64,000 nt of DNA from an uncultured Hyphomicrobiales bacterium (GCA_964634885.1 CAZWLN010000011.1:7216-71215), one strand, 5' to 3'; counted from the stretch's first letter, positions 16,128 to 63,881 are shown. Translations and numbers: made by a program. The notes: generated from the letters alone by a model not told the origin.

Positions 16128-17396
16128 ATGCTTTTAGAATTCAAAATCCGCAACTTTCGCTCAATCCGTGAGGAACTTACATTGTCGATGATGTCTTCCG
16201 GCAGGCTGGGAAAGAAAGACCTGCCCGACAATGTCGCCCTCCACGACAAGTTCAAAGCCGTTAAAAGCTTAGTCTTGTACGGCAGGAACGCTTCGGGGAA
16301 AAGTAATGTTATACTTGCAATACTTGCATTACAGAATATTGTCTCACAATCTGACAAGTTCAGGATTAATGAAAGGATACCTGTTTATGAGCCATTTTTA
16401 CTCGACGATGAATATATCAATAAACCTGTAATGTTTGCAATCGACTTCATCGGATATGATAATAACAGGTACAATTATCTTATCGAATTTAACAGTGATG
16501 AAATATTAAAAGAAGAATTATTTTTTTATCCTAATGGTGTAAAGTCAAAACTTTATAAGAGAGATGGTTTGGAACTATCATACGGAGACTATTTCTCCGG
16601 AAATAGAAAATCAATTGAAAATGAACTTTTAAAGAACCAATTGTTTCTTTCTAAGTCTTCAACAATGAGGTTTAAATATTTGAATGAAGTGTATTCATCT
16701 ATCATTGCTTATGTCAGTGTAATGAAAAATCAGACTGATTTTGACCGTGGACTTCCAATCGGAATGACAGAGGATAAAACAAAAAGAATGAATAGTATTA
16801 TTAATTTATTGAAAAATGCAGACACGAATATTCATGATTTTAAACTAATCAGACAAAATGCCGCAGAATCTCATTTTGCACAAAGTTTTTTATATAGTGT
16901 TCATGAAGATGAAAAGCCTTATTGGTCGTTTGAAAAAATTAATCTTAAAACAATGCATCCTGTCTTCAGAAACGGTCAAATAGTCAGATATACAGATTTT
17001 GATTTTACCCAGGAATCATCAGGAACAAAAAAACTATTCGGGATAAGCTATCAGTTACTTACCTGTCTTGATAACGGAGGAATTTTATTCGTAGATGAGC
17101 TTGACCAAAGCCTGCATCCTTTGCTTACAAGGATGTTGATTGGCCTGTTCCACAACCCGGAAACCAATCCCAAAAATGCTCAACTGATCTTTGCAACCCA
17201 CGACAGCTACTTACTCGATTCCGAACTGTTCCGCAGGGACCAGATAGGTTTTGTCGAAAAGGGCTATGAAGGGAATTCGGAATTGTACAGGTTGAGCGAC
17301 ATCAAAGGCGTAAGGAAGGACATTCCAATCGACAAGTGGTACCTGAGCGGAAGGTTCGGCGCCATTCCGGTCATCGGAGACTTCAGTCTGAAATAA
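16128..17396 (+). CDS. AAA_21-type ATPase (RloA/AbiEii/AbiLi-like)
   Basis: MLLEFKIRNFRSIR, GRNASGKSN, ESSGTKKLF, LFVDELDQSLHP, QLIFATHD, FRRDQIGF, YLSGRFGAIP. Confidence 0.9.
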   Translation: MLLEFKIRNFRSIREELTLSMMSSGRLGKKDLPDNVALHDKFKAVKSLVLYGRNASGKSNVILAILALQNIVSQSDKFRINERIPVYEPFLLDDEYINKPVMFAIDFIGYDNNRYNYLIEFNSDEILKEELFFYPNGVKSKLYKRDGLELSYGDYFSGNRKSIENELLKNQLFLSKSSTMRFKYLNEVYSSIIAYVSVMKNQTDFDRGLPIGMTEDKTKRMNSIINLLKNADTNIHDFKLIRQNAAESHFAQSFLYSVHEDEKPYWSFEKINLKTMHPVFRNGQIVRYTDFDFTQESSGTKKLFGISYQLLTCLDNGGILFVDELDQSLHPLLTRMLIGLFHNPETNPKNAQLIFATHDSYLLDSELFRRDQIGFVEKGYEGNSELYRLSDIKGVRKDIPIDKWYLSGRFGAIPVIGDFSLK

Positions 17397-17715: not shown

Positions 17716-17979
17716 CTAATACATTCTTCTATTTGATTGTGGTTTTTCCTGCGCTAATTTTACAGTGATTGTCCTGCCCTGTATATCAGTTTCATTCAAT
17801 CCGTCCATTGCTTTTCTGGCAGCGTTGTCAGACATTTCGACAAAACCGAAGCCACGAGACATTCCGGTTTCTCTGTCAGTAATAATTTTGAGAGAATCGA
17901 TTTCTCCAAATTCTCTAAATTCCGAAGTCAATTCGGCTTCGGTCATGCTGTTGGGAAGGTTCCCGACAAATAATTTCAT
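17716..17979 (-). CDS. RNA-binding protein, single RRM domain (copy 1)
   Basis: RNP2 LFVGNL and RNP1 RGFGFVEM. Confidence 0.95.
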   Translation of the reverse strand: MKLFVGNLPNSMTEAELTSEFREFGEIDSLKIITDRETGMSRGFGFVEMSDNAARKAMDGLNETDIQGRTITVKLAQEKPQSNRRMY

Positions 17980-18027
17980 ATAAAATCCTAAAAATTAAAA
18001 ATTCTTAATCACTATTGATTAATAGAC

Positions 18028-18093
18028 TACAAAATTACAAATATTATGATTATATATATTACAGAAATCGCAGAATATATTACATAATTCACA
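18028..18093 (-). promoter_or_regulatory. RRM1 promoter: -7 box plus conserved direct-repeat operator (copy 1)
   Basis: Minus strand TGTGAATTATGTAA-N12-TTTCTGTAAT, then 20 nt, then TAATTTTGTA. Same layout as at 27972-28037. Confidence 0.7.
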
Positions 18094-18322
18094 GATTATT
18101 GATAATATTTCGATTTTTTGGTCTCATGGAAGAAAAAAGACGGATGAAGTCTATGGAGTCGAAGGATTAACAAACTGTATGAATGCTTAAAGCTGAAAAC
18201 CGGACCCATGATTGCTGCTTTATGGCTTACACCTGTGTGCGGAGGGATCAATAATCCTTACACACCGGCAGTCTATACAAATATAAGAAATCCAACAAAG
18301 CACAATTGATAAAATTAACTAT

Positions 18323-18354
18323 AATTATATAAATCTTTCCCGGATTTCTGTAAC
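18323..18354 (+). promoter_or_regulatory. Direct-repeat operator (copy 2) upstream of the radical SAM gene
   Basis: AATTATATAA-N12-TTTCTGTAAC, with the same 12-nt spacer as the other two copies. Confidence 0.55.
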
Positions 18355-18417
18355 GAATGTTTTTCAGTTAAGTATTAATTTATTAAAAAGATAAAAGTAC
18401 TATATTGGAATGGAAAT

Positions 18418-19899
18418 ATGAATGCCTTACTAATCTACCCGGAGTACCCGGCTACATTCTGGAGTTTTAAATATGCCCTGTCATTTATAAATAAAAAAGC
18501 TTCGCTTCCGCCTTTGGGTTTGCTTACTGTCGCTTCAATGCTCCCCGTTCAATGGGATAAAAAGCTGGTTGACATGAATGTATCCGAATTGAAAGATGAG
18601 GACATCGAATGGGCAGACTATGTCCTGATCAGCGGGATGACGGTTCAAAGGGCATCGGCACAAGAGGTAATCGACAGGGTAAGGCAATTTGGGAAATTGA
18701 TTGTTGCCGGAGGGCCTTTGTTTACAAACGAAACGGAGTCTTTCAAGAACGTGGATTGCTTTGTGCTCAACGAAGGCGAGGTCACTATCCCTATGTTTCT
18801 GGAAGGACTGAAAAACGGCGACCTGAAAAGGGTGTACTCATCCGCCGAAAGGCCTGAGATGACCAAAACACCGCTGCCGGACTGGTCGTTGATCGATCCC
18901 GGCGATTACTCTTCGATGTCGATACAAATCACACGCGGATGTCCCTACAATTGCGATTTCTGTGATATTGTGGTTATTAACGGCAGGGTTCCGAGATTGA
19001 AGACTGTGGCTCAGGTCAGGTCCGAACTCGACGCAATTTACAACACCGGCTGGAGAGGCAGCCTGTTTATTGTCGATGATAATTTCATCGGCAATTATAG
19101 CAAGGTGAAACAAATACTATCCGGAATAATCGAATGGATGGATGAGAAAAAGAGGCCTTTCTCCCTGTCAACCGAAGCTCCCATCACGCTTGCCGACAAT
19201 GAAGATATTGTCGATCTGATGCGAAAAGCCAATTTTGTGAAGGTCTTCGTAGGCATTGAAACGCCGGATGAAGAAGGCTTAAAGTCATGCGGCAAGCACC
19301 AGAATCTCAACATGAACCTAACCGAAAAAGTGAAATGGCTTCAAAGGAATGGAATCGAAGTCCAGGGTGGGTTCATCGTAGGTTTTGATACAGATACGCC
19401 CGGTATTTTCGACAATATGATCAGGTTCATCCAGGGAAGCGGCATCGTAACGGCAATGGTAGGCTTGCTCCATGCCATGCCGGAAACAAACCTGTATAGG
19501 AAACTTCAACACGAAGACAGGATCATCAACGCGCCAACAGGTAACAATACGGACAGCACACTGAATTTCCTGCCGAAGATGAACATTGACACTCTAACCG
19601 AGGGATACCGGAAAATCCAGGACACTATTTTCTCACCCAAGCCATTTTACAGGAGAGTAAAAGTGTTTCTGAAGGAATACCGCAGTCCGAAGGTATCATC
19701 GGGATTGACAGTGGCTACACAGATAAAAGCGCTTTCAAAATCGATATTAAAAATGGGGATAATTGAAAAAGGAAAAATTCATTTCTGGAAAGTACTGATT
19801 TGGACTACATTTCGCAAACCAAGGTTGTTCCCGTTAGCAATTACGATGTCTATCTACGGCTATCATTTCAGGCAGGTACTCCTGAACCAGAATATATAG
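18418..19899 (+). CDS. B12-binding class B radical SAM protein with DUF4070-like C-terminus (HpnP-like)
   Basis: PPLGLLTVAS B12-binding start, CPYNCDFC (CxxxCxxC), FIVDDNF, GFIVGFDTD, C-terminal YGYHF. Confidence 0.88.
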   Translation: MNALLIYPEYPATFWSFKYALSFINKKASLPPLGLLTVASMLPVQWDKKLVDMNVSELKDEDIEWADYVLISGMTVQRASAQEVIDRVRQFGKLIVAGGPLFTNETESFKNVDCFVLNEGEVTIPMFLEGLKNGDLKRVYSSAERPEMTKTPLPDWSLIDPGDYSSMSIQITRGCPYNCDFCDIVVINGRVPRLKTVAQVRSELDAIYNTGWRGSLFIVDDNFIGNYSKVKQILSGIIEWMDEKKRPFSLSTEAPITLADNEDIVDLMRKANFVKVFVGIETPDEEGLKSCGKHQNLNMNLTEKVKWLQRNGIEVQGGFIVGFDTDTPGIFDNMIRFIQGSGIVTAMVGLLHAMPETNLYRKLQHEDRIINAPTGNNTDSTLNFLPKMNIDTLTEGYRKIQDTIFSPKPFYRRVKVFLKEYRSPKVSSGLTVATQIKALSKSILKMGIIEKGKIHFWKVLIWTTFRKPRLFPLAITMSIYGYHFRQVLLNQNI

Positions 19900-19999
19900 G
19901 TTATTGAGTTGAATAAAAAATAATTGTTCATTTAAAAGTGATTTCTTTTCGGGGGGTACATAATCAACTTCTTCTCAATCCAACGGTTTGAGGTAAATA

Positions 20000-22963
20000 A
20001 TGAAAATATTAATAGTTGATGACAATCAGGAAAGCCTGGAAAAGACAGAATTACTTTTCAGAAGAAACAACCATCGCGTTCATTCTGCTATCGGCGGCAT
20101 GCTGGCGCTTAAGAAGCTTCGTTCCGAAAAGTATGATATAATCATCTCCGAAATACAAATGCCGGCTATGGATGGTTTCAAACTGTGCAAGGAATGCAAA
20201 AAAGATATTGAATTGAGAAATATATGTTTTATATTCTATACAGGAACATTTGTCGATGATAAGGATGAAGAATTTGCTTTATTGTTAGGCGCACAGAGAT
20301 TGATACGCAAGCCACAAGAACCGGAAGTTCTTCACAGTATTATTAAGGAAATAATTGAAAAAAAAGGGAATTCCCAAATTGTACCGAAGAACATTATTGA
20401 AAAAGATGGAAGAGAGTGGCATAAGCTTATCAGTGAACGCCTGGTTACAAAAATAGAGAATAAGAATCATGATTTGGAAAATGAAATAGCTTCATATAAA
20501 AGTACGTTGAAAGCATTGAGCGCATCTGAAATCCAGTATCGCCGACTGTTTGAATCGGCAAAAGACGGCATTTTGATTCTCGACACAGACACTGGAAAGG
20601 TCGTTGACGTTAATCCCTATTTAATCAATATTTTACACAATAATTACGAACAAATCATCGGAAAAGCAGTGTGGGAATTGGGATTTTTAAATGATGTTAT
20701 TGCCAGCTATGACAAGTTCTATGAGTTATGTCAAAGGGAATACGTGCGTTACGAAGATTTGCCGCTTAAAACTGCCGACGGAAAACGTGTCGATGTGGAA
20801 TTTGTCAGCAATGTCTATCTCGTAAATAGCAACAAGGTTATCCAATGTAATATTCGCAATATTAGTGAACATAAGATAAAAGAAGATCAACTGAAACTTT
20901 TTGCCGTTATTCTCGAGCAATTGAACAGGCAAGATGAATGGCAAATTCTGATCAGCGATATATTGAAAGAATTAAAATTGTTTTCGGGATTCGATTCGGT
21001 AGGAATCCGGCTGAAGAATGGGAACGATTATCCATATTATCTTCAATATGGTTTTACAGAAGCAATTCTTACTGAGGAAAACAGGCTTTGTGCGACAAAC
21101 AAATATGGTTCCATAGACATGGATCAGGATGGCATGCCGGTACTTGAGTGTCAATGCGGAGTTGTGTTGTCAGGTAAAACAGATTCAGGAAAGCCTTATT
21201 ATACCAAAGGCGGCAGCTTTTGGACTAATCAATTTAGCGAATTAGAAGAGATGGGGTCCAATGATGACATTAGTACGCAAACCAGGAATAATTGCATTCA
21301 TTCAGGTTATATGTCTGTGGCATTACTACCGATTGTTACCGGCAATAAGACGGCCGGATTGCTGCAATTCAGTTGCAAACAACCCGATATGTTTACACTT
21401 AGCCTGATTGAATTCTATGAAAAAATTGCCTCGACTATCGGGATTGCTTATAACAGAATTCAGTCGGGAGAGAAAATCAGAAAAAGCGAAATCAAATATC
21501 GCGACTTAGTTGATAATGCATTGGTCGGTGTTTATCGAACTTCTTTGGAAGGCGAGATCACATATTGTAACGAAGCCATGCTAAATATATTAGAATTTGA
21601 AGGCAACGATTATAAAGAATTGAATACAAATGTTTCGTATAGGAATTCAGACGAAAGAAATTTATTGATAAATACAATCCGGGATGCCGGAACAATAAAC
21701 AATTTTGAAACTGAATTAATTACTTACAAGGGGAAAAAGATACATGTTGTTATTAACGGTAAGCTTGACGGCAATCAGCTTTCCGGTATGATACTCGACG
21801 ACACAGAACGCAAACTGGCTGAGCGGGAACTAAAGAAAGCACTCGAAAAAGCCGAAGAAAGAGACAAACTGAAAACCGCTTTCCTACACAATATGTCACA
21901 CGAAATACGAACCCCTCTGAATGGTATCATAGGGTTCTCTGAATTGCTTAAAAATGATGATATTACACGTGATGATATAGCCGAATTTACGGATATAATC
22001 AAGCGAAGCGGAAAAAGGCTTATTGAAATAGTGAATAATGTTCTCGAAATTGCCAGAATTGAGACAGGGCAAGTACAAATGGAAAAAAGACAAATTAATA
22101 TTAATTCAATTCTATCAGACTTATTTGACTTTTTTGCTCCATTGGCAAAGGTTAAGAGTCTTAATTTGGATTACCATATTTATAAAAATGATAAAAAAGT
22201 GCTGGTATATACTGATGAAACGAAGCTGCATCAGATACTTACCAATTTGATAAACAATGCAATAAAGTTTACCAAATCCGGCAGCATAGATTTTGGCTAT
22301 GTAATCAAAGGTAATACTGTTCAATTCTATGTAAAAGACACAGGAATCGGTATCCCGCCTGAGTTTATGGATAAAATCTTTAACAGGTTCATTCAGGTCG
22401 GACAGCCGCTTTCGAATGAGCATGAAGGAGCCGGGCTTGGGCTGGCTATTTGCAAAAGCCTGGTAGAATTGCTCGAAGGCAGAATATGGATTGAATCTGA
22501 AATTAACAAGGGTTCTACATTTTACTTTACATTGCCATATACTCCCGATGCAATACCAGCCAGGATAAATATTACATATACCGAAAACACAATTAAACAA
22601 ACTCCCGGAAAAATCCTGGTTGTTGAGGACGATCTGACAAGTTTCATGTATCTTAACAAACTTTTGGGAAAGCATGATATTTTTCCTTTACATGCTAAAA
22701 ATGGTAAACAGGCGGTCGATTTTGTAAATAATACACCAAGCATCGAATTAATACTAATGGATATAAAAATGCCATTAATGGACGGTATCGAAGCAATGAA
22801 AAAAATAAAGGAAATAAGGCCCGATTTACATGTCATTGCTCTGACAGCTTATGCTTTCACCGAGGAACGAAACAACATCCTATCCATCGGCTTTGATGAC
22901 TATATAGCAAAACCGATTGGAAAAGAGGCAATATTGGATGTCATTTGTAATTATATGAAATAG
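20000..22963 (+). CDS. Hybrid sensor kinase (REC-PAS-GAF-PAS-HisKA-HATPase-REC)
   Basis: H-box HNMSHEIRTP, N/G boxes (NNAIKFT, DTGIGI, GAGLGL), C-terminal REC LMDIKMP; the N-terminal REC has E at the phospho-Asp position. Confidence 0.92.
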   Translation: MKILIVDDNQESLEKTELLFRRNNHRVHSAIGGMLALKKLRSEKYDIIISEIQMPAMDGFKLCKECKKDIELRNICFIFYTGTFVDDKDEEFALLLGAQRLIRKPQEPEVLHSIIKEIIEKKGNSQIVPKNIIEKDGREWHKLISERLVTKIENKNHDLENEIASYKSTLKALSASEIQYRRLFESAKDGILILDTDTGKVVDVNPYLINILHNNYEQIIGKAVWELGFLNDVIASYDKFYELCQREYVRYEDLPLKTADGKRVDVEFVSNVYLVNSNKVIQCNIRNISEHKIKEDQLKLFAVILEQLNRQDEWQILISDILKELKLFSGFDSVGIRLKNGNDYPYYLQYGFTEAILTEENRLCATNKYGSIDMDQDGMPVLECQCGVVLSGKTDSGKPYYTKGGSFWTNQFSELEEMGSNDDISTQTRNNCIHSGYMSVALLPIVTGNKTAGLLQFSCKQPDMFTLSLIEFYEKIASTIGIAYNRIQSGEKIRKSEIKYRDLVDNALVGVYRTSLEGEITYCNEAMLNILEFEGNDYKELNTNVSYRNSDERNLLINTIRDAGTINNFETELITYKGKKIHVVINGKLDGNQLSGMILDDTERKLAERELKKALEKAEERDKLKTAFLHNMSHEIRTPLNGIIGFSELLKNDDITRDDIAEFTDIIKRSGKRLIEIVNNVLEIARIETGQVQMEKRQININSILSDLFDFFAPLAKVKSLNLDYHIYKNDKKVLVYTDETKLHQILTNLINNAIKFTKSGSIDFGYVIKGNTVQFYVKDTGIGIPPEFMDKIFNRFIQVGQPLSNEHEGAGLGLAICKSLVELLEGRIWIESEINKGSTFYFTLPYTPDAIPARINITYTENTIKQTPGKILVVEDDLTSFMYLNKLLGKHDIFPLHAKNGKQAVDFVNNTPSIELILMDIKMPLMDGIEAMKKIKEIRPDLHVIALTAYAFTEERNNILSIGFDDYIAKPIGKEAILDVICNYMK

Positions 22964-23106
22964 ATATTCAGACTCTCCGATTAAAAAGAATTGGATTCCC
23001 ACATGCATATCAATTTCCGGATCCTGAATGCCATATTCTGTGTGTCAGACCACAGCCGTTGCATTTCTCAGTCACAGGTATATGCAAACCTTTGCCGTGC
23101 AGAGAA

Positions 23107-23445
23107 TTACATATAGCCGTTTTTGATGACGGTCAGAATCATCTTAAACCGTTCATTCGCCCTGATAATATGAGCTGAATGTGCCGGAATGACAATTGAA
23201 CTGCCGGTTTCAATAAATTTTGCTTCTGAGTTGATAATAATTTCGGCCCTGCCTTCGATGACCTGCGCAAAAGAATCAAAAGGAATGGTTCTTTCGTCCA
23301 AAGCTTCCCCGTCGTCGAAAGACATGACAGAAACGTTTCCGGTAGCCTTTTTAATAATTGTTTTACTGACAATCGTATGAGGTTCATACTCTATTATTTC
23401 AACCAGGATTACCGGTTGCGACTTAACTATTTCGACACTGTTCAT
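23107..23445 (-). CDS. Cupin domain protein
   Basis: VMSFDDGE, QVIEGRAEII, IVIPAHSAHII. Confidence 0.85.
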   Translation of the reverse strand: MNSVEIVKSQPVILVEIIEYEPHTIVSKTIIKKATGNVSVMSFDDGEALDERTIPFDSFAQVIEGRAEIIINSEAKFIETGSSIVIPAHSAHIIRANERFKMILTVIKNGYM

Positions 23446-23490
23446 TGTAAATCCTGATTATTAATTTGTAAAATCTTTTTTATTATAGTA

Positions 23491-24456
23491 TCATTGCTGG
23501 TCATCAAGCCATTTCAGTAGTTCTTTGACGCTACCTGTTGCAAGGGCAATACACATGTCGGCAGCCCCATAATATACGTTAATAGTATCGCCGTCGGGTG
23601 CAATGGTGTGGCCGCAAGGGAACACGACTTTATTGACATCGCCTGTCAACTCGTATTGCTCTTCAGGACCAAACATCCAGTCATCAGACCGTTTAATGCA
23701 GAGTTCAGGCTTGTTCAAATCGAATAATGCCAGGCCCAGCCTGTAAATACAGCCGGCAGCATTTTGCTTGACACCATGATATATAATCAGCCAGCCGTCC
23801 GGCGTTTCAATTGGTGTAGATGAGAGCCCGATCTTATTGGCATCCCACCAACTGCCTCTCCTGGCTTCCATCATCAGTTTGTGGCTTCCCCAATGCCTTA
23901 AGTCGGGTGAATATGAAATCCAGATATGCGCCCTTGGAGAACTTACGGGACGATGAATTAAAGCCCAGTAATCGCCGATACGATGGGGCAGTAATGCCGC
24001 ATCCTTGTCTTCGGGCGACATAATAATGCCATATCGCTCAAAGGTGTGGAAGTCTTCCGTGAAAGCAAGCGCCACTCCGGGACCTTCAACTGCATATGCC
24101 GTATAGACGACAGCGTATTTTTTCAATTCCGGGACCCATGTAACGCGTGGGTCTTCAATGCCCCAGATTTCCTCGGGGAAATTCTCGGGTTCGGGCCTTA
24201 ATGTCCCTTCTTTATCGATAGCCCAATTATCTACCCCATTCTTTGAACGAGCGGCACAAAGATGAGACTGGCCGTTTCTTTCCTCTACACGGCACAGCAA
24301 CAGGGTTGTCCCGTCTTCCAAAAGAGTGGCGCCCGCGTTAAAAACACTGTTTACCGGATAGGGCCAATCGTCGGAAGTCAGTATTGGATTGTGCTTATAT
24401 CGGTGTAACAGTTTTATATATTGATGTCCCATTTTTTTCTTGTTGTTTTTTATCAT
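23491..24456 (-). CDS. GH130 family glycoside phosphorylase/glycosidase
   Basis: VFNAGA, GIEDPRV, KDAALLP, HRP, KIG, YHGV, VVFPCG, YYGAAD; ATGA overlap with the upstream glycosyltransferase. Confidence 0.9.
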   Translation of the reverse strand: MIKNNKKKMGHQYIKLLHRYKHNPILTSDDWPYPVNSVFNAGATLLEDGTTLLLCRVEERNGQSHLCAARSKNGVDNWAIDKEGTLRPEPENFPEEIWGIEDPRVTWVPELKKYAVVYTAYAVEGPGVALAFTEDFHTFERYGIIMSPEDKDAALLPHRIGDYWALIHRPVSSPRAHIWISYSPDLRHWGSHKLMMEARRGSWWDANKIGLSSTPIETPDGWLIIYHGVKQNAAGCIYRLGLALFDLNKPELCIKRSDDWMFGPEEQYELTGDVNKVVFPCGHTIAPDGDTINVYYGAADMCIALATGSVKELLKWLDDQQ

Positions 24457-26723
24457 AAAATTAAATTTTCAATATACCTCATCTCCAGAAGTGATTGTAG
24501 GAATGCCAATGTGGATTCGGCCCCCTGGTTTTCATTTGTTCTGTCGCTATGTAAGCCGTCGCGGCAACCACCGGTCGTTGGGTCGTAAATGGATAGATTC
24601 AGGTCATTCCTGCCAAGGAACCATTCGAATGCCCGCCGGGCTTCCTGACGCCAGCGTTCTTCGCCGGTAATCCTGTACGCTTCGAGACAGGCTGAAACCA
24701 TGGTTTGAGCCTCGACCGGCTGTTGGTCGAACCTTGCGCGTTCTCCGTTCCTGGGGAAAAATCCATTCGAACCGATGGGCACAAAATGTCCGCCTACCGA
24801 ATCGGCTTTCTGCAAATCGGCTAACCATTGCAGCGATTCGAGGCCTTTTTCTGTCATGGAACTGTTGGGTATCGAACTTCCGCCTATTAATAATGCATGC
24901 GGCAAAGCAGCATTGCAATAGCTCAGGCTCTTTTCAAACCACGGCCAGTTTGGGGAATGAATATTTTCATACAACGCAAGTAACCGTTCAGCCAATTCCG
25001 AACGTACATGACTTACCTTGCTGTCGCCCGCAAATCGTTGAGAATACTCGTTAATGCCCATGAGAGCGAAGGACCATGCGCGGGGGCTTGTCATTGTGAG
25101 AATAGCGGGCAGGGCCTGTTCGAAAAGCCTACCGGCAAGGCTTTGCAGAGAAGGCGTTTTTGACCTCCCCAGCACGGTGCCTAATGACCAAAGAGTTCGG
25201 CCGTGGCTGTCGTCTGAACCTGCTGTTTCAAGCCAATTGCGCCGGAAGTCAAGAAAATTCCTGAAATGGCCGTTGCCGCTGTTGAAAGCATACATAATGA
25301 ACGCAAGGTACCGGGAAGCCATTTTTGACGCTTCTCCGTTGTACACTGATTCCAACAAAATGCTGACAATCAGGGCACGGGCATTGTCGTCCGTTGTGTA
25401 TCCTTCTTCGTAGTTAGGTACAGAAAATACAGCATGTTGAAATATTCCCGTATCGTCCGTCATCCTTAACAGATGGTCGAGTTTGAGAGGTGGAAGTTCC
25501 CCGGGCTTTTCGTTCAAAGTCTTAACGACATGAACCGGGTGTTTTGTAGAATTCATGCGCTCTACACGTGCGCGCTGGAAGCTCTCCATATAGTGTTGTG
25601 CCGACTTGGACCATAACATCTCCCTGCCGAACATATAGGCCCGTTTACGCATCGCATGGCGGTTCTGTTCGTCGTCGAGCAGTCTGATTACCTGTTCCGA
25701 AAGAGTTTCAGGATCGTGAAAAGGCACAAGTACACCACGCTCTTCAGCCAGCATTTCTTCGGCATACCAATAGGGTGTGGAAATGACTGCTTTGCCGGCT
25801 CCCAGAGTGTAAGCCAGCGTGCCAGACGTGATCTGCGTTTCATTAAGATAGGGTGTGATGTATATATCAGCGGCGCCGATGAACTGAATCAGTTCATCAA
25901 TACTAACGAAGCGGTTATAGAATATTACCTGGCTTTCAACACCGTTCTCATGCGCCAGCCATTGAAGGGACAATCGGTAGTTTTCACCGTCGTTGCGTTT
26001 CACATGAGGGTGCGTTTCACCAAGAACAATATATACTACATTAGGATGGCGTTCAATAATTTTCGGAAGGGCTGAGATTACACTCTCTATTCCTTTGCTT
26101 GGGGACAGCAATCCAAAAGTTAACAATACGGTTTTGCCTTCGACGCTGAACAAGTCCTTGTGAAAACTCGGGTCGACAAAAGGTACGTCGGGTATGCCGT
26201 GATGGATCATGTCGATTTTTTCGGGTGGTACTTTGTATATATCCTGAAGGAATTCGGCTCCTCTTTCGCTCATTACTACCAATCTGTCCGAAAGAGCAGC
26301 AACTTTGTCAAGCACTAATTTCTGATCCTGATTCGGCTCTCGTAAAATTGTATGCAATGTTGTTACAATGGGCATCGTCAGTTCCCGCAATAAAGTAATG
26401 ATATGGCTTCCTGCCCTGCCTCCGAAAATACCGTATTCGAATTGAAGACATACGATATCGACATTATTAATATTTAAGAAATCGGAAGCACGACGATACG
26501 ACTCTATATCCTTTTCCATCAGTTCGAACCTTACCCGCGAGGGATAGTCATATCCTTCCTCGATGTCGTTGACGGGAATTGCGATGCAGGTCGTATTTGG
26601 GTATTCATCGGCGATGGCTTCGCTCAGGTCGGTAGTAAATGTTGCTATGCCACACTGCCGTGGCAAATAATTACCGATGAAAGCTATCCTGTTTATCGAT
26701 TTATTTTTTAAATTCTTTGACAT
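24453..26723 (-). CDS. GT4 glycosyltransferase fused to a C-terminal (alpha/alpha)-toroid glycosidase-like domain
   Basis: N-terminal GT-B domain (PRQCGIATFT, QFEYGIFGG, GLLSPSKGIE, SGTLAY, STPYWYAEE); C-terminal DDTGIFQHA, YTTDDNAR, FDQQPVEA, NQGAESTL. Confidence 0.88.
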   Translation of the reverse strand: MSKNLKNKSINRIAFIGNYLPRQCGIATFTTDLSEAIADEYPNTTCIAIPVNDIEEGYDYPSRVRFELMEKDIESYRRASDFLNINNVDIVCLQFEYGIFGGRAGSHIITLLRELTMPIVTTLHTILREPNQDQKLVLDKVAALSDRLVVMSERGAEFLQDIYKVPPEKIDMIHHGIPDVPFVDPSFHKDLFSVEGKTVLLTFGLLSPSKGIESVISALPKIIERHPNVVYIVLGETHPHVKRNDGENYRLSLQWLAHENGVESQVIFYNRFVSIDELIQFIGAADIYITPYLNETQITSGTLAYTLGAGKAVISTPYWYAEEMLAEERGVLVPFHDPETLSEQVIRLLDDEQNRHAMRKRAYMFGREMLWSKSAQHYMESFQRARVERMNSTKHPVHVVKTLNEKPGELPPLKLDHLLRMTDDTGIFQHAVFSVPNYEEGYTTDDNARALIVSILLESVYNGEASKMASRYLAFIMYAFNSGNGHFRNFLDFRRNWLETAGSDDSHGRTLWSLGTVLGRSKTPSLQSLAGRLFEQALPAILTMTSPRAWSFALMGINEYSQRFAGDSKVSHVRSELAERLLALYENIHSPNWPWFEKSLSYCNAALPHALLIGGSSIPNSSMTEKGLESLQWLADLQKADSVGGHFVPIGSNGFFPRNGERARFDQQPVEAQTMVSACLEAYRITGEERWRQEARRAFEWFLGRNDLNLSIYDPTTGGCRDGLHSDRTNENQGAESTLAFLQSLLEMRYIENLIL

Positions 26724-26739
26724 ATTACTAATCCTGCTA

Positions 26740-27597
26740 TTACTTGGGAAGCAAAGACTTTACTCCTGCCAATTCCCCGATTATATTAACCAACTCGGAT
26801 CCCTGTGGAACGATTACCTTGGCATTGTTTGCAAGAGAATTCTCAACAGCTTCGAGTTTTCTCATCAATTGCGCATTGCCGATGAAGTATTGATCAGCGG
26901 CTTCATTGACCAATTTTATAGAAGCGGCGTCGCCTTCGGCGTGCAATATCTTTGCCTGGCGGTATCCTTCGGCTTCCTTGATTTTTGCGCGTTTTTCGCC
27001 GTCAGCTACCGTTTCTCTTGCCGAGGCAAAGTCAACTGCTGCCACTTTTTCATTTTCAGCTTTTACGACTTTGTTCATTGTCTCTTGTACATCAGAGGGC
27101 GGGTCAATCTCTTTCAGTTCGGTTCGGACGATTTCGATTCCCCAGTTATGTGTTTCTTCGAGCAGCGTTCTGTGCAGTTCGGCGTTGATCTTTCCTCTTT
27201 CGCTGTTGGCGGACTTCAGGGTCAGGGTACCAATTATGTTCCTCAGAGTCGTTCGTGCAAGGTTGACAATCTGGTACATATAATTGTTGACATTGTACTG
27301 CGAGTTTTTTACGCTTTCTTCGTCCGATTTGACCTTGAAATAGACCTGGGCGTCAACCTTTGCGTTCAGGTTGTCATTGGTAATAATCTCCTGGCGTTCC
27401 GCATTGATCATCGATTCGGTTACATTTACCCTGTACATCCGTTCGATAAATGGGAATACCCAGTGAAAGCCCGGCTCGGCAAACCTGTTGTATTTACCCA
27501 GGCGCTCGGTCAATCCCCTGTGAGTAGGCCTGACAATCCTTACGCCGCTCCAAACAAATAATACGACGAACAGAGCTCCTCCCAAAATAATTTCCAT
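26740..27597 (-). CDS. SPFH/band 7 membrane protein
   Basis: N-terminal TM, ERLGKY..PGFHW, ITNDNLNAKVDA, WGIEIVRTELKEI. Confidence 0.93.
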   Translation of the reverse strand: MEIILGGALFVVLFVWSGVRIVRPTHRGLTERLGKYNRFAEPGFHWVFPFIERMYRVNVTESMINAERQEIITNDNLNAKVDAQVYFKVKSDEESVKNSQYNVNNYMYQIVNLARTTLRNIIGTLTLKSANSERGKINAELHRTLLEETHNWGIEIVRTELKEIDPPSDVQETMNKVVKAENEKVAAVDFASARETVADGEKRAKIKEAEGYRQAKILHAEGDAASIKLVNEAADQYFIGNAQLMRKLEAVENSLANNAKVIVPQGSELVNIIGELAGVKSLLPK

Positions 27598-27655
27598 ACA
27601 AACCTCCTATATATTTTTACAATTCCAAACAGAAAGTACCAGCCGACTTCTGATA

Positions 27656-27919
27656 TTAACAGTATCTTCTGACGGTATCCTTTTTATCCTGTGCAATACG
27701 AACTGATATTTTCCTGCCGTCCATGTCCGAATTGTTAAGCTTATTTATAGCTCTGCGGGCATCGTCATCAGCCATTTCAAGGAAACCGTAACCACGGGAT
27801 CTTCCTGTCTCTTTGTCAGTAATTATTTTCAAAGACTCTATATCGCCATATTCATAAAATTCGGACTTCAATTCGTCTTCGGTAACACTGTTGGGAAGAT
27901 TCCCCACAAATAGTATCAT
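27656..27919 (-). CDS. RNA-binding protein, single RRM domain (copy 2)
   Basis: LFVGNL and RGYGFLEM; about 53/87 residues identical to copy 1 by manual alignment. Confidence 0.95.
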   Translation of the reverse strand: MILFVGNLPNSVTEDELKSEFYEYGDIESLKIITDKETGRSRGYGFLEMADDDARRAINKLNNSDMDGRKISVRIAQDKKDTVRRYC

Positions 27920-27971
27920 ACATTATCCTGAATAGATAATTAAACCAGGTTTTAACCTGTTTATTTCCGGA

Positions 27972-28037
27972 TACAAAGTTATGGTATTGAAAACAAGTAA
28001 AATTACAGAACTTCGGGAATTACTAACATAATTCACA
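27972..28037 (-). promoter_or_regulatory. Promoter of the RRM2-SPFH-GT4-GH130-cupin operon: -7 box plus operator (copy 3), overlapping the AraC stop codon
   Basis: Minus strand TGTGAATTATGTTA-N12-GTTCTGTAAT, then 20 nt, then TAACTTTGTA. Confidence 0.7.
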
Positions 28038-28593
28038 CATTGTTTATTCCGTGCCTTCTTTGGTTGCTCATCTTTTTGAAAAAAGTAGGGGTTAAACCGG
28101 TTACTTTCTTGAATTGATTGGATAGATGCTGGACGCTGCTGTAATGGAGCTTCCAGGCGATCTCCGAGAGATTGAGCTCGTTGTAAACCAACAATTCTTT
28201 TACGCGTTCGATTTTGTGGCGGATAATAAATTGCTCAATGGTTGTACCGTGGACTTCCGAGAACAGATTGGAAATATATGTATAATCGTAATTCAGTTTT
28301 TCGCTTAGATACTGGGAAAAGTTGATTTTCAATTCATCATCCGAATAATGAATAAGCTCGATGATTATGCTTTTTATCTTTTCGATCAACTGCGATCTCT
28401 TATCTACAAGCAATTCGAGGCCCGTTTTCCTTAGGTTCTTGTCGAGTTGCTCCAGTTGTTCAGACGATATGCTTCCGACAACGTTTACTTCGCCCAGTTC
28501 GAGGTTGTTGTATTGAATCCCGATCTTTTCGAGTTCCGATTGCAACACCATCTTACAGCGAATGCAAACCATATTTTTAATGAATATTTTCAT
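28033..28593 (-). CDS. AraC-family transcriptional regulator with N-terminal CxxC (HMA-like) domain
   Basis: KNMVCIRC N-terminus; C-terminal AraC double HTH (LSEIAWKLHYSSVQHLSNQFKKVTGLTPT). Start at MKIFIK preferred. Confidence 0.92.
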   Translation of the reverse strand: MKIFIKNMVCIRCKMVLQSELEKIGIQYNNLELGEVNVVGSISSEQLEQLDKNLRKTGLELLVDKRSQLIEKIKSIIIELIHYSDDELKINFSQYLSEKLNYDYTYISNLFSEVHGTTIEQFIIRHKIERVKELLVYNELNLSEIAWKLHYSSVQHLSNQFKKVTGLTPTFFKKMSNQRRHGINNV

Positions 28594-28628
28594 AATATCA
28601 GTCCAATTTATCAAAATTCAACTTAATC

Positions 28629-28638
28629 TACAAAATTA
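28629..28638 (-). promoter_or_regulatory. -7 promoter box of the AraC gene
   Basis: Minus strand TAATTTTGTA, 36 bp upstream of ATG 28593; identical to the RRM1 box. Confidence 0.5.
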
Positions 28639-28888: not shown

Positions 28889-29140
28889 ATGAATGATAAA
28901 GAAAACAGTTTAGCGTCCCCCGATGCACACATACTCTTAGAGTTAGTGAAAACATCAATGCCTTACGGCAGGTATGCAGGTACCGTCCTGTGCGACCTGC
29001 CCGTCTCATACCTCGAATGGTTCGAGCGCACAGGGTTTCCCGAGGGCAGGCTGGGAATGCTGCTACGGACGATGTTCGAGATAAAGATTAACGGGCTGGA
29101 CTACCTTCTGCAACCTCTCAAGAGGAGGTCTTTCAGTTGA
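28889..29140 (+). CDS. DUF3820 family protein
   Basis: MPYGRYAG..LCDLP..YLEWF...GFPEGRLG...EIKINGL. Confidence 0.88.
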   Translation: MNDKENSLASPDAHILLELVKTSMPYGRYAGTVLCDLPVSYLEWFERTGFPEGRLGMLLRTMFEIKINGLDYLLQPLKRRSFS

Positions 29141-29616
29141 AACCTGCTACCATCAACGAACTGAAGAATGAACTCAAAAACGCCAAACCGGCCAAAGTGC
29201 TGGAAATGTGCCTACGGCTGGCAAGACACAAAAAAGAGAACAAGGAACTCCTCACTTACCTCATCTTCGAAGCCGACGACGAAGTCAACTATGTCAACTC
29301 GGTGAAAGAAGAAACCGACGGCCTGTTCGAATCCATGAACCGCAGCAGCCAGTACCTGGCAACTAAGTCTGTCAGGAAAATCCTCAGGAACATCAATAAA
29401 TACATACGGTTTTCAGGCTCGAAGCAGACCGAAACAGAACTGCTGCTATATTTCTGCCGCTGCCTCAAAGACTCGGGCATTGAAATGAAGCCGGGAAGCG
29501 CCCTCTCCAATATCTATTACAGGCAGAAAGAGAAGATATACAAAGCCGTCGGCTCTCTGCACGAGGACCTGCAATGCGACTACACTGCCGAAATGGAGAA
29601 ATTGGAAGAATCTTAA
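29137..29616 (+). CDS. Conserved hypothetical protein (Bacteroidota type)
   Basis: TTG start overlapping the upstream stop; CLRLARHKKENKELLTYLIFEA resembles a conserved uncharacterised family. Confidence 0.75.
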   Translation: MKPATINELKNELKNAKPAKVLEMCLRLARHKKENKELLTYLIFEADDEVNYVNSVKEETDGLFESMNRSSQYLATKSVRKILRNINKYIRFSGSKQTETELLLYFCRCLKDSGIEMKPGSALSNIYYRQKEKIYKAVGSLHEDLQCDYTAEMEKLEES

Positions 29617-63646: not shown

Positions 63647-63881
63647 GGGAACACAATTCCGGAAAAATTAATTATTTTGAGTTATTGCAGCCTGAGTACA
63701 TACTATAGCAATATTCCGGCTATACTAATTTTTATGTGTTAATATTCGGTATATCCCGACGATAATATTCAATTGAAGGGATTATTACTGTTAAATATAT
63801 ATATGTTCTGTAACCGGTCATAGGCTGGAGACATGAAAAACATATTGTAAAGGAGAATGCGATGATGTTCAGGGTAATTGG

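Follow-up and report, generated by a model that had tools for sequence, protein, structure and literature searches.

A candidate stress regulon linked to a CxxC AraC-family regulator and a 35-bp direct-repeat operator in Ignavibacteria and Bacteroidota

Does a compact group of unlike genes beside one AraC-family gene form a closed regulatory island, or is it the local part of something larger? The question is raised by positions 17,716 to 28,638 of a 64,000-nt stretch of DNA (hereafter the window) from an uncultured Hyphomicrobiales bacterium (GCA_964634885.1 CAZWLN010000011.1:7216-71215). A first description made from the sequence alone (the sequence-only reading) had taken this block for a self-contained, possibly acquired stress module in which an AraC protein with an N-terminal CxxC motif serves three transcription units: RRM1, a radical SAM gene with a hybrid histidine kinase gene, and the series RRM2-SPFH-GT4-GH130-cupin. 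The block consists of nine genes whose domains match that description in Pfam and NCBIfam, its nearest relatives are metagenome-assembled genomes (MAGs) of Ignavibacteria, and a Joint Genome Institute (JGI) metagenome holds an identical contig. We propose that a widely conserved regulon, under a one-component AraC activator with an HMA-like/CxxC N-terminal domain, probably has its local core in this block.

We compared 80 loci of 12 kb around AraC orthologues, taken from species-representative genomes of Bacteroidia, Cytophagales, Chitinophagales, and Ignavibacteriota, and a further 120 metagenome loci (L082-L201) picked by the exact motif pattern only. The consensus operator is a direct repeat of 35 bp with a 21-bp period, TGTGAATkATGTAA-N14-TrTGTAAy, whose half-sites are AATkATGTAAc and ArTTrTGTAAC. 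A two-box search (TGTGAATkATGTAA plus TnTGTAA) returned a 14-nt gap in 96 of 107 matches. AraC proteins bind direct repeats about 21 bp apart, and the half-site profiles here correlate at an offset of exactly 21 (r = 0.80), with r no higher than 0.25 at all other offsets tested.

The window was scored with a 75-nt position-weight matrix trained on other genomes only, and the three block sites ranked first to third in the 64 kb. The top score (38.9 bits) fell on a strong operator upstream of RRM2 (28003-28037, minus strand; TGTGAATTATGTTA-N14-TCTGTAA), the second (30.3 bits) on a strong operator upstream of RRM1 (18059-18093, minus strand; TGTGAATTATGTAA-N14-TCTGTAA), and the third (3.8 bits) on a weak operator upstream of the radical SAM gene (18319-18353, plus strand; CTATAATTATATAA-N14-TCTGTAA), which is degenerate in the distal TGTG; the next best position scored -12.4 bits. 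The claim that the three units share a spaced direct-repeat motif was thus confirmed, the three best scores all lying upstream of the units named. The upstream regions, aligned with one another in gene orientation, read CTGTGAATTATGTAATATATTCTGCGATTTCTGTAAT for RRM1, GTGTGAATTATGTTAGTAATTCCCGAAGTTCTGTAAT for RRM2, and ACTATAATTATATAAATCTTTCCCGGATTTCTGTAAC for the radical SAM gene. In shuffled 64-kb windows (n = 200) the mean maximum was -15.7 bits and the highest 0.3, none reaching 3.8, and the weak radical SAM site has P of about 0.0015 in an AT-rich intergenic null. All three sites are inside the block, with none in the 53 kb outside it, and matrix scans of the window found no site beyond the three. 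The shorter string TTCTGTAAY occurs seven times in the window versus 0.94 expected; the four other copies (14979, 16328, 33187, 63806) have no distal box, and three of them lie in coding sequence. The copy at 63806-63814 (plus strand; TTCTGTAAC) is isolated in AT-rich sequence near the window end, stands beyond the last long open reading frame (ORF), and has neither a distal box nor a matrix score.

How would such a site act? A second information peak, tA.cTTTg, which played no part in site selection, appears downstream of the proximal repeat. Housekeeping promoters of Bacteroidota carry TAnnTTTG as their -7 element; 39 sites have an exact match to it 21-23 nt past TGTAA, in 33 cases at 22, and the -7 box has an offset of 21-22 across 157 sites. 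In the window it lies at 27974-27981 for the RRM2 operon (minus strand; TAACTTTG, offset 21 from the proximal repeat), at 18030-18037 for RRM1 (minus strand; TAATTTTG, offset 21), and, in imperfect form, at 18376-18383 for the radical SAM gene (plus strand; TAATTTAT, offset 22). The aligned sites have no conserved TTTG at the -33 position, a place occupied by the proximal repeat, so the promoters look activator-dependent; and a -7 box of housekeeping type gives no reason to invoke an alternative sigma factor. AraC-family proteins are known to activate in class II fashion at direct repeats, and the geometry here looks like a class II activator layout, akin to that of AraC at I1-I2 of pBAD. We propose that two AraC subunits would bind two half-sites exactly 21 bp apart, the proximal one taking the place of the -33 element and ending 21-22 nt upstream of the -7 box. 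From this position, over -33 and in phase with the -7 box, bound AraC would recruit RNA polymerase (class II); it would drive RRM1 and RRM2-SPFH-GT4-GH130-cupin strongly, and the radical SAM gene weakly, possibly together with the hybrid kinase.

A site that overlaps the core promoter may also suit a repressor, and repression is known for some AraC-family proteins, so that AraC might bind the motif mainly to repress, or act dually, occluding RNA polymerase over -33 until a signal arrives. We think this unlikely, given that no conserved -33 TTTG is found under or beside the proximal repeat, that class II activators typically stand in fixed phase with the -7 box, and that AraC/XylS members mostly activate.

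RRM1 and RRM2 are paralogues (62% amino acid identity; 76% nucleotide identity over 186 nt). Upstream likeness between paralogues alone could be inherited, which is why the matrix was trained solely on other genomes, and the objection is removed by the radical SAM site together with conservation across genomes. There is next to no chance, in our judgment, that the motif is an artefact, either a remnant of the RRM duplication or a structured RNA element: it also precedes the unrelated radical SAM gene, 370 sites were scored elsewhere before unrelated genes, and its place ahead of the -7 box puts it outside the transcript that it would control. An Rfam scan of the whole window gave no family match, and the fold z-scores of the motif (-0.14, +0.55, and -0.26; from -1.1 to +0.55 when the two RRM leaders are included) indicate no RNA element.

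Is AraC the protein that reads the operator? In 68 of 79 orthologous loci the operator lay at most 150 nt past the AraC gene, and in 53 of the 79 its distal box overlapped the AraC stop codon in a single register (..gTG TGA att..), as it does in the window, where the distal box of the RRM2 operator includes that codon (gTG TGA). It stood upstream of AraC in 1 of the 79 loci, and no operator precedes the AraC gene of the window. AraC loci of 12 kb hold 1.97 operators on average, the 53 kb of window sequence flanking the block hold none, and AraC and operator are conserved in parallel across classes. Among the 120 motif-anchored loci, an AraC orthologue was found in 24 (13 of 57 among loci of at least 4 kb), which points to a regulon that is normally dispersed.

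The remaining 96 of these 120 loci show no AraC in the flanking DNA available, and the pairing of AraC with the motif is drawn from comparison; a different factor, either a transcription factor or a polymerase-associated protein, might therefore read the motif, with AraC a mere neighbour or target. This seems to us quite unlikely in view of the exact register at the AraC stop codon, the parallel conservation of regulator and operator, the 21-bp direct repeat, which is an AraC-family signature, and the housekeeping type of the -7 box. By a rough estimate AraC is also enriched about 100-fold near sites (20% versus about 0.2% expected for a genome of a few Mb).

The regulator itself (28033-28593, minus strand; 186 aa) begins at the ATG giving MKIFIKNMVCIRC, and the N-terminal KNMVCIRC motif reported for it occupies residues 6-13. 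It has the dual helix-turn-helix of the AraC/XylS family (HTH_18, PF12833: 61.7 bits, cut-off 33.6; HTH_AraC, PF00165: 35.2 bits, cut-off 26.6), and none of the curated NCBIfam models reached its cut-off. The AlphaFold2 model (predicted local distance difference test score, pLDDT, 92.5) has an N-domain (residues 2-62) joined by a long linker helix to the dual helix-turn-helix domain. Foldseek matched the DNA-binding half to YesN-C, GadX, MarA, and SoxS (TM 0.70-0.82), and the N-domain to the HMA proteins TTHA1718, HMA7, CopZ, Atox1, and Atx1 (TMt 0.57-0.67, E 0.02-0.1). The modelled N-domain thus has the HMA fold, beta-alpha-beta-beta-alpha-beta (E2-6, H11-24, E28-32, E35-38, H44-55, E60-62; pLDDT > 90), and its M-x-C-x-x-C (M8-V9-C10-I11-R12-C13) sits in the metal-binding loop position, where C10 belongs to the beta1-alpha1 loop and C13 to the opening turn of helix 1, an arrangement also seen in HMA proteins. 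Across 46 orthologues M8, V9, R12, and C13 never vary, and conservation of C10 is at least 90%. More than 8000 homologues exist; among the 120 matches listed, full-length identity is 63-86%, and the labels read Ignavibacteria, Bacteroidales, Marinilabiliales, Draconibacterium, and Solitalea. At 50% identity and E <= 1e-30 there are 617 clusters. Across Ignavibacteria and Bacteroidota the protein is 60-86% identical, and its DNA-binding domain is nearly invariant.

We propose that AraC is probably made constitutively and switched post-translationally, the HMA-like domain serving as sensor and dimerization module. The Cys pair in the HMA-like loop suggests a thiol or metal switch, through which the signal (thiol oxidation, a bridging metal, or a cluster) would be read; a metal or cluster might, for example, bridge two subunits. 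No metal-homeostasis genes occur in the regulon, so any specific signal is given low odds, and each must be regarded as doubtful.

Tandem AraC paralogues with 40-60% identity are present in seven loci (L014, L025, L037, L039, L047, L066, and L077). Some have an operator in front of them and genes for PAS kinases and single-domain receivers behind, and those behind an operator may form a regulatory cascade.

Which genes lie behind the operator? The sequence-only reading had staked itself on its genes recurring near this AraC elsewhere, and they do: tblastn over the 80 AraC loci found the cupin in 48, the GT4 fusion in 31, the radical SAM gene in 20, GH130 in 14, SPFH in 8, RRM in 4, and a kinase in 3. 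In Bacteroidia, the cupin or the radical SAM gene usually follows AraC, and all seven of these families are also found directly behind the motif elsewhere. Counted as the first downstream gene over 370 sites, the cupin is the commonest target (46 sites), followed by DUF5670 and CsbD (26 each), the radical SAM gene (16, with strong sites), an ice-binding-like protein with a type IX secretion system (T9SS) sorting tail (12), an unknown 108-aa protein (10), OmpA with a Gly-zipper (9), an AraC paralogue and MlaE (7 each), GH130 (followed by GT4) and a PAS kinase (5 each), and RRM (3). The operons behind the sites also hold YtxH, a holin-X-like protein, an AI-2E transporter, Usp, YceI, Csp, PRC-barrel, DUF302, PAP2, baeRF family 3, SPFH, and KaiC-KaiB-KaiB, and PAS kinases with single-domain receivers recur in 20 motif-driven operons. 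Pfam confirmed the cluster representatives of CsbD, DUF5670, YtxH, Usp, YceI, OmpA with Gly-zipper, MlaE, MlaD, ice-binding, CSD, PRC-barrel, DUF302, AI-2E, KaiC, and KaiB.

By gene content this regulon resembles the sigma-B and EcfG general stress regulons. We take lmo0937 of Listeria to be the namesake of the DUF5670 family. This gene figures in studies of the sigma-B regulon (PMC3225968, PMC7690807). Since genes typical of general stress regulons stand behind the operator across Bacteroidota and Ignavibacteria, the regulon most likely functions in general stress, in the cold, or in dormancy.

The ice-binding-like proteins hint at a cold or freezing component. Many of the motif-anchored contigs seemingly come from cold soils, bogs, or lakes, judged by sample names alone. 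In two Bacteroidales MAGs (L076 and L080, downstream of 6551) an operon of KaiC-KaiB-KaiB and a PAS protein stands directly behind AraC and operator, so that clock-like Kai proteins appear to be under the stress operator there.

Several points weigh against the proposed regulon and its thiol- or metal-switched activator. The entire case is comparative, and a site over -33 could serve repression. The third operator of the window is weak (3.8 bits) and its -7 box imperfect. Targets were called by naive ORF finding with one representative per cluster, and the loci span only 12 kb. PF00403 (HMA) gave no match at E <= 0.001 and the sequence match to 2kyz is weak (E = 0.23); for want of a Pfam HMA call the domain is termed HMA-like, and metal binding is not claimed. 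The tandem AraC paralogues replace the first Cys (MVSxRC or MESERC), so the fold family can do without the Cys pair. Finally, no metal-homeostasis or peroxide-detoxification genes were found among the regulon targets, which leaves the metal or redox sensing attributed to the module a conjecture.

Could the block nevertheless be what it was first taken for, a self-contained, horizontally acquired metal or redox island coupling RNA chaperoning, membrane microdomains, oligosaccharide cycling, and lipid methylation? The block contains all three operators of the window, and the 64 kb visible hold no other regulon family (tblastn of 25 regulon families against the window returned only generic receiver domains). 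The AT-richness noted at 20-23 kb is real (GC 0.36-0.39 versus about 0.46-0.52 in the flanks), the kinase and a neighbouring AAA_21 gene being AT-rich; the GT4-GH130 pair recurs across phyla at 74-76% identity; and CxxC does lie in an HMA-like fold. We nevertheless judge the island very unlikely. Elsewhere the regulon is dispersed and far larger, with AraC near only 24 of the 120 motif loci and targets spanning many further families, which does not favour a self-contained block; the targets include no metal or redox genes, and the radical SAM protein of the block matches no named equivalog. Nor do composition and synteny support acquisition: GC content at third codon positions (GC3; window mean 0.54 +/- 0.08) deviates in the kinase (0.37, the lowest of the block), both RRM genes (0.40), and the cupin (0.43) only, and is ordinary (0.49-0.55) in AraC, radical SAM, SPFH, GT4, and GH130. 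AraC-RRM-GT4-GH130-cupin is moreover syntenic, at 65-80% amino acid identity and without SPFH, in an Ignavibacteria MAG (L006). Acquisition by composition, as a general statement about the block, was therefore rejected.

As the probable local core of a wider regulon, how is the block built? The genes RRM2, SPFH, GT4, GH130, and cupin, all on the minus strand, are separated by 58, 16, -4, and 45 nt and most simply form one operon, with RRM2 its first gene and the cupin its last. The AraC gene is immediately upstream of RRM2 in the same orientation. On the plus strand, the hybrid histidine kinase gene (20000-22963) starts 100 nt past the radical SAM gene, has no operator of its own, and may be co-transcribed with it. 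Pfam finds in the kinase two PAS domains, HisKA, HATPase, and two receiver stretches, and the MKILIVD start together with the reported stretch positions gives the order REC-PAS-PAS-HisKA-HATPase-REC. AraC had been called the only regulator in the block; it is the only DNA-binding one, and the hybrid kinase is a signalling protein as well. Neither a sigma-70 scan (43 promoter-like sites versus 29.1 +/- 6.0 in shuffles, with a consensus inapplicable to Bacteroidota-type promoters) nor a scan for terminator-like sites (11 in the window versus 11.3 in shuffles) informs operon boundaries.

RRM1 (17716-17979, minus strand; PF00076, 73.9 bits) and RRM2 (27656-27919, minus strand; PF00076, 80.4 bits), an 87-aa single-RRM RNA-binding protein, score 96-98 bits on NF058537 Rbp_regulator (RRM2: 97.6), just under the cut-off of 100. 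An RRM gene was seen behind the operator only in the window's own Ignavibacteria-like lineage (the window, L005, L006, and L041); in the last three, RRM2 orthologues come after AraC and a site. The predicted 5' leader of RRM2 contains a hairpin (CAGGTTAAAACCTG; 27946-27959, minus strand) followed by a T-rich run, with a z-score of only -1.1; hairpins are also found in the RRM2 leaders of the relatives L006 and L005, and the hairpin could be an attenuator or an autoregulatory site.

The SPFH/Band 7 membrane protein (26740-27597, minus strand) matches PF01145 at 138.2 bits. Orthologues 74-80% identical to it are found near AraC in eight loci, and behind sites it occurs in the order DUF5670, a 61-aa gene, SPFH. 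Identification as HflK was rejected (107 on the HflK equivalog versus a cut-off of 159).

The GT4 fusion (24453-26723, minus strand; 756 aa) carries the GT4 families over residues 25-376, and Foldseek matched this N-domain to MshA, PimB', BshA, and TreT. Its C-terminal domain of about 360 aa is all-alpha and made of helical pairs in an AlphaFold2 model of moderate confidence (pLDDT 68.7), with a weak sequence match to YPO2471 (7tem, E = 3.5e-7); the Foldseek matches listed for the fusion are all GT4 domains, none placing the C-terminal domain. The start of the GH130 gene (23491-24456, minus strand; PF04041, 178.9 bits) overlaps the end of GT4 by 4 nt. The enzyme is beta-mannoside phosphorylase-like: its closest solved structures are TM1225, which is uncharacterised, and beta-mannoside phosphorylases or synthases, and it scores 219 (cut-off 550) and 184.9 (cut-off 450) against the beta-1,2-mannobiose phosphorylase equivalogs. 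Proteins labelled Deltaproteobacteria, Anaerolineae, Proteobacteria, and Sumerlaeota are 74-76% identical to the GT4 fusion over its full length, and in two such contigs GH130 follows GT4 (L202, 4747-9017; L203, 6001-9221) without AraC or motif. GT4-GH130 looks like a mobile two-gene cassette that may have been recruited under the operator. The glycan synthase/phosphorylase pair of the sequence-only reading was right as to families (a MshA/PimB'/TreT-like GT4 and a TM1225-like GH130). Oligosaccharide cycling is less well founded: the transferases of family GT4 are retaining, the enzymes of GH130 work on beta-mannosides, and the two need not form a plain make-and-break pair.

The small cupin (23107-23445, minus strand; 112 aa) gives Cupin_2 at E = 1e-5 (25.6 bits, under the cut-off of 27.2), and solved structures yielded only uncharacterised relatives of it (3rns, 1yhf, and 2ozj in the PDB). 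The radical SAM protein (18418-19899, plus strand) has Pfam matches to Radical_SAM (64.4 bits) and DUF4070 (123.5 bits) only, with none to a B12-binding domain; it is probably a B12-dependent class B enzyme, and among solved structures it has one relative, unnamed. Lipid methylation, the role proposed for it, found no backing in the named NCBIfam equivalogs, all of which score far under cut-off (HpnR 55 versus 650, HpnJ 52 versus 578, and the ladderane-lipid radical SAM enzyme 59 versus 360).

Beyond the block, an AAA_21/AbiEii-like ATPase gene (16128-17396, plus strand; GC 0.37, GC3 0.40) adjoins RRM1; it is the most AT-rich long ORF nearby and may be a defence or mobile gene. At the other end, two small ORFs (28889-29140 and 29137-29616, both plus strand) diverge from AraC. 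One of them has a QSregVF_b (PF12843) match in the annotation of the identical JGI contig, and neither is kept beside AraC in the 80 orthologous loci.

A literature search on the regulator, the operator, the general stress response of Bacteroidota, AraC with CsbD/YtxH, HMA with AraC, and DUF5670/lmo0937 found no description of this regulator or operator, in a search that covered few subscription journals. The combination of an HMA-like sensor domain, a near-invariant 35-bp operator in the stop codon of the regulator, and a phylum-wide, stress-like regulon appears to be undescribed, and we know of no general stress regulator described for Bacteroidota and relatives, which make up a large share of the communities in gut, soil, sea, and sediment. 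We tentatively raise the wider idea, which we hold to be somewhat less probable than its negation, that the CxxC AraC serves Bacteroidota and Ignavibacteriota as master activator of their general stress response; its role would be like that of sigma-B, sigma-S, or EcfG, exerted by a thiol- or metal-switched one-component activator on housekeeping promoters by way of the near-invariant operator. The operator can be scanned for in any genome, with a defined promoter geometry and a list of recurrent targets, and it offers a stress context for families of unknown function, such as the 112-116-aa cupin, the DUF4070 radical SAM enzyme, and the 756-aa GT4 fusion. An HMA-like domain would also be, by prediction, the sensor or dimerization module of a transcription factor.

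The regulator shares with Escherichia coli AraC at araBAD I1-I2 a dual helix-turn-helix C-domain and direct half-sites with a 21-bp period, the proximal one over the -35 equivalent, with class II activation by a dimer (predicted here). It differs in having a CxxC-bearing, HMA-like ferredoxin fold of about 65 aa in place of the arabinose-binding cupin, in showing no sign of DNA looping, in its Bacteroidota -7 promoter, and in serving stress genes instead of sugar catabolism. MarA, SoxS, and Rob of Enterobacteria are likewise AraC-family activators with multi-operon stress regulons, and the DNA-binding domains match structurally. MarA and SoxS consist, however, of the DNA-binding domain only, bind as monomers to one asymmetric box of about 20 bp, and are controlled through their own synthesis, whereas the regulator here has an extra N-domain of about 65 aa, a two-repeat 35-bp site, no site upstream of its own gene, and other targets; the extra N-domain and the two-repeat site place it outside the MarA/SoxS type.

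The N-domain is like CopZ, Atx1/Atox1, TTHA1718, and HMA7 in fold and in its M-x-C-x-x-C at the beta1-alpha1 junction. In contrast to these metallochaperones, it is fused to a DNA-binding domain, has an invariant Arg in the loop (C-I-R-C), is not called by the Pfam HMA model, and has paralogues that lose the first Cys, and its metal binding is only putative. Among the targets, the 87-aa single-RRM proteins RRM1 and RRM2 are like Bacteroides NF058537 Rbp_regulator and the cold-induced cyanobacterial Rbp; unlike the NF058537 proteins, they fall just under the cut-off of 100, and an AraC operator before such genes was seen only in the Ignavibacteria-like lineage.

The general stress systems of Bacillus and Listeria (sigma-B) and of Alphaproteobacteria (EcfG-NepR-PhyR) have in common with this regulon CsbD, YtxH, Lmo0937/DUF5670, Usp, PRC-barrel, and OmpA-like proteins, as well as the association with PAS kinases and single-domain receivers. 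They work through an alternative sigma factor with partner switching, whereas here the promoters carry the TAnnTTTG -7 box of housekeeping type and would be served by an AraC-type activator. With the gene content of a general stress response and no alternative-sigma promoter, the regulon would work like a general stress response, yet outside the sigma-B, sigma-S, and EcfG systems.

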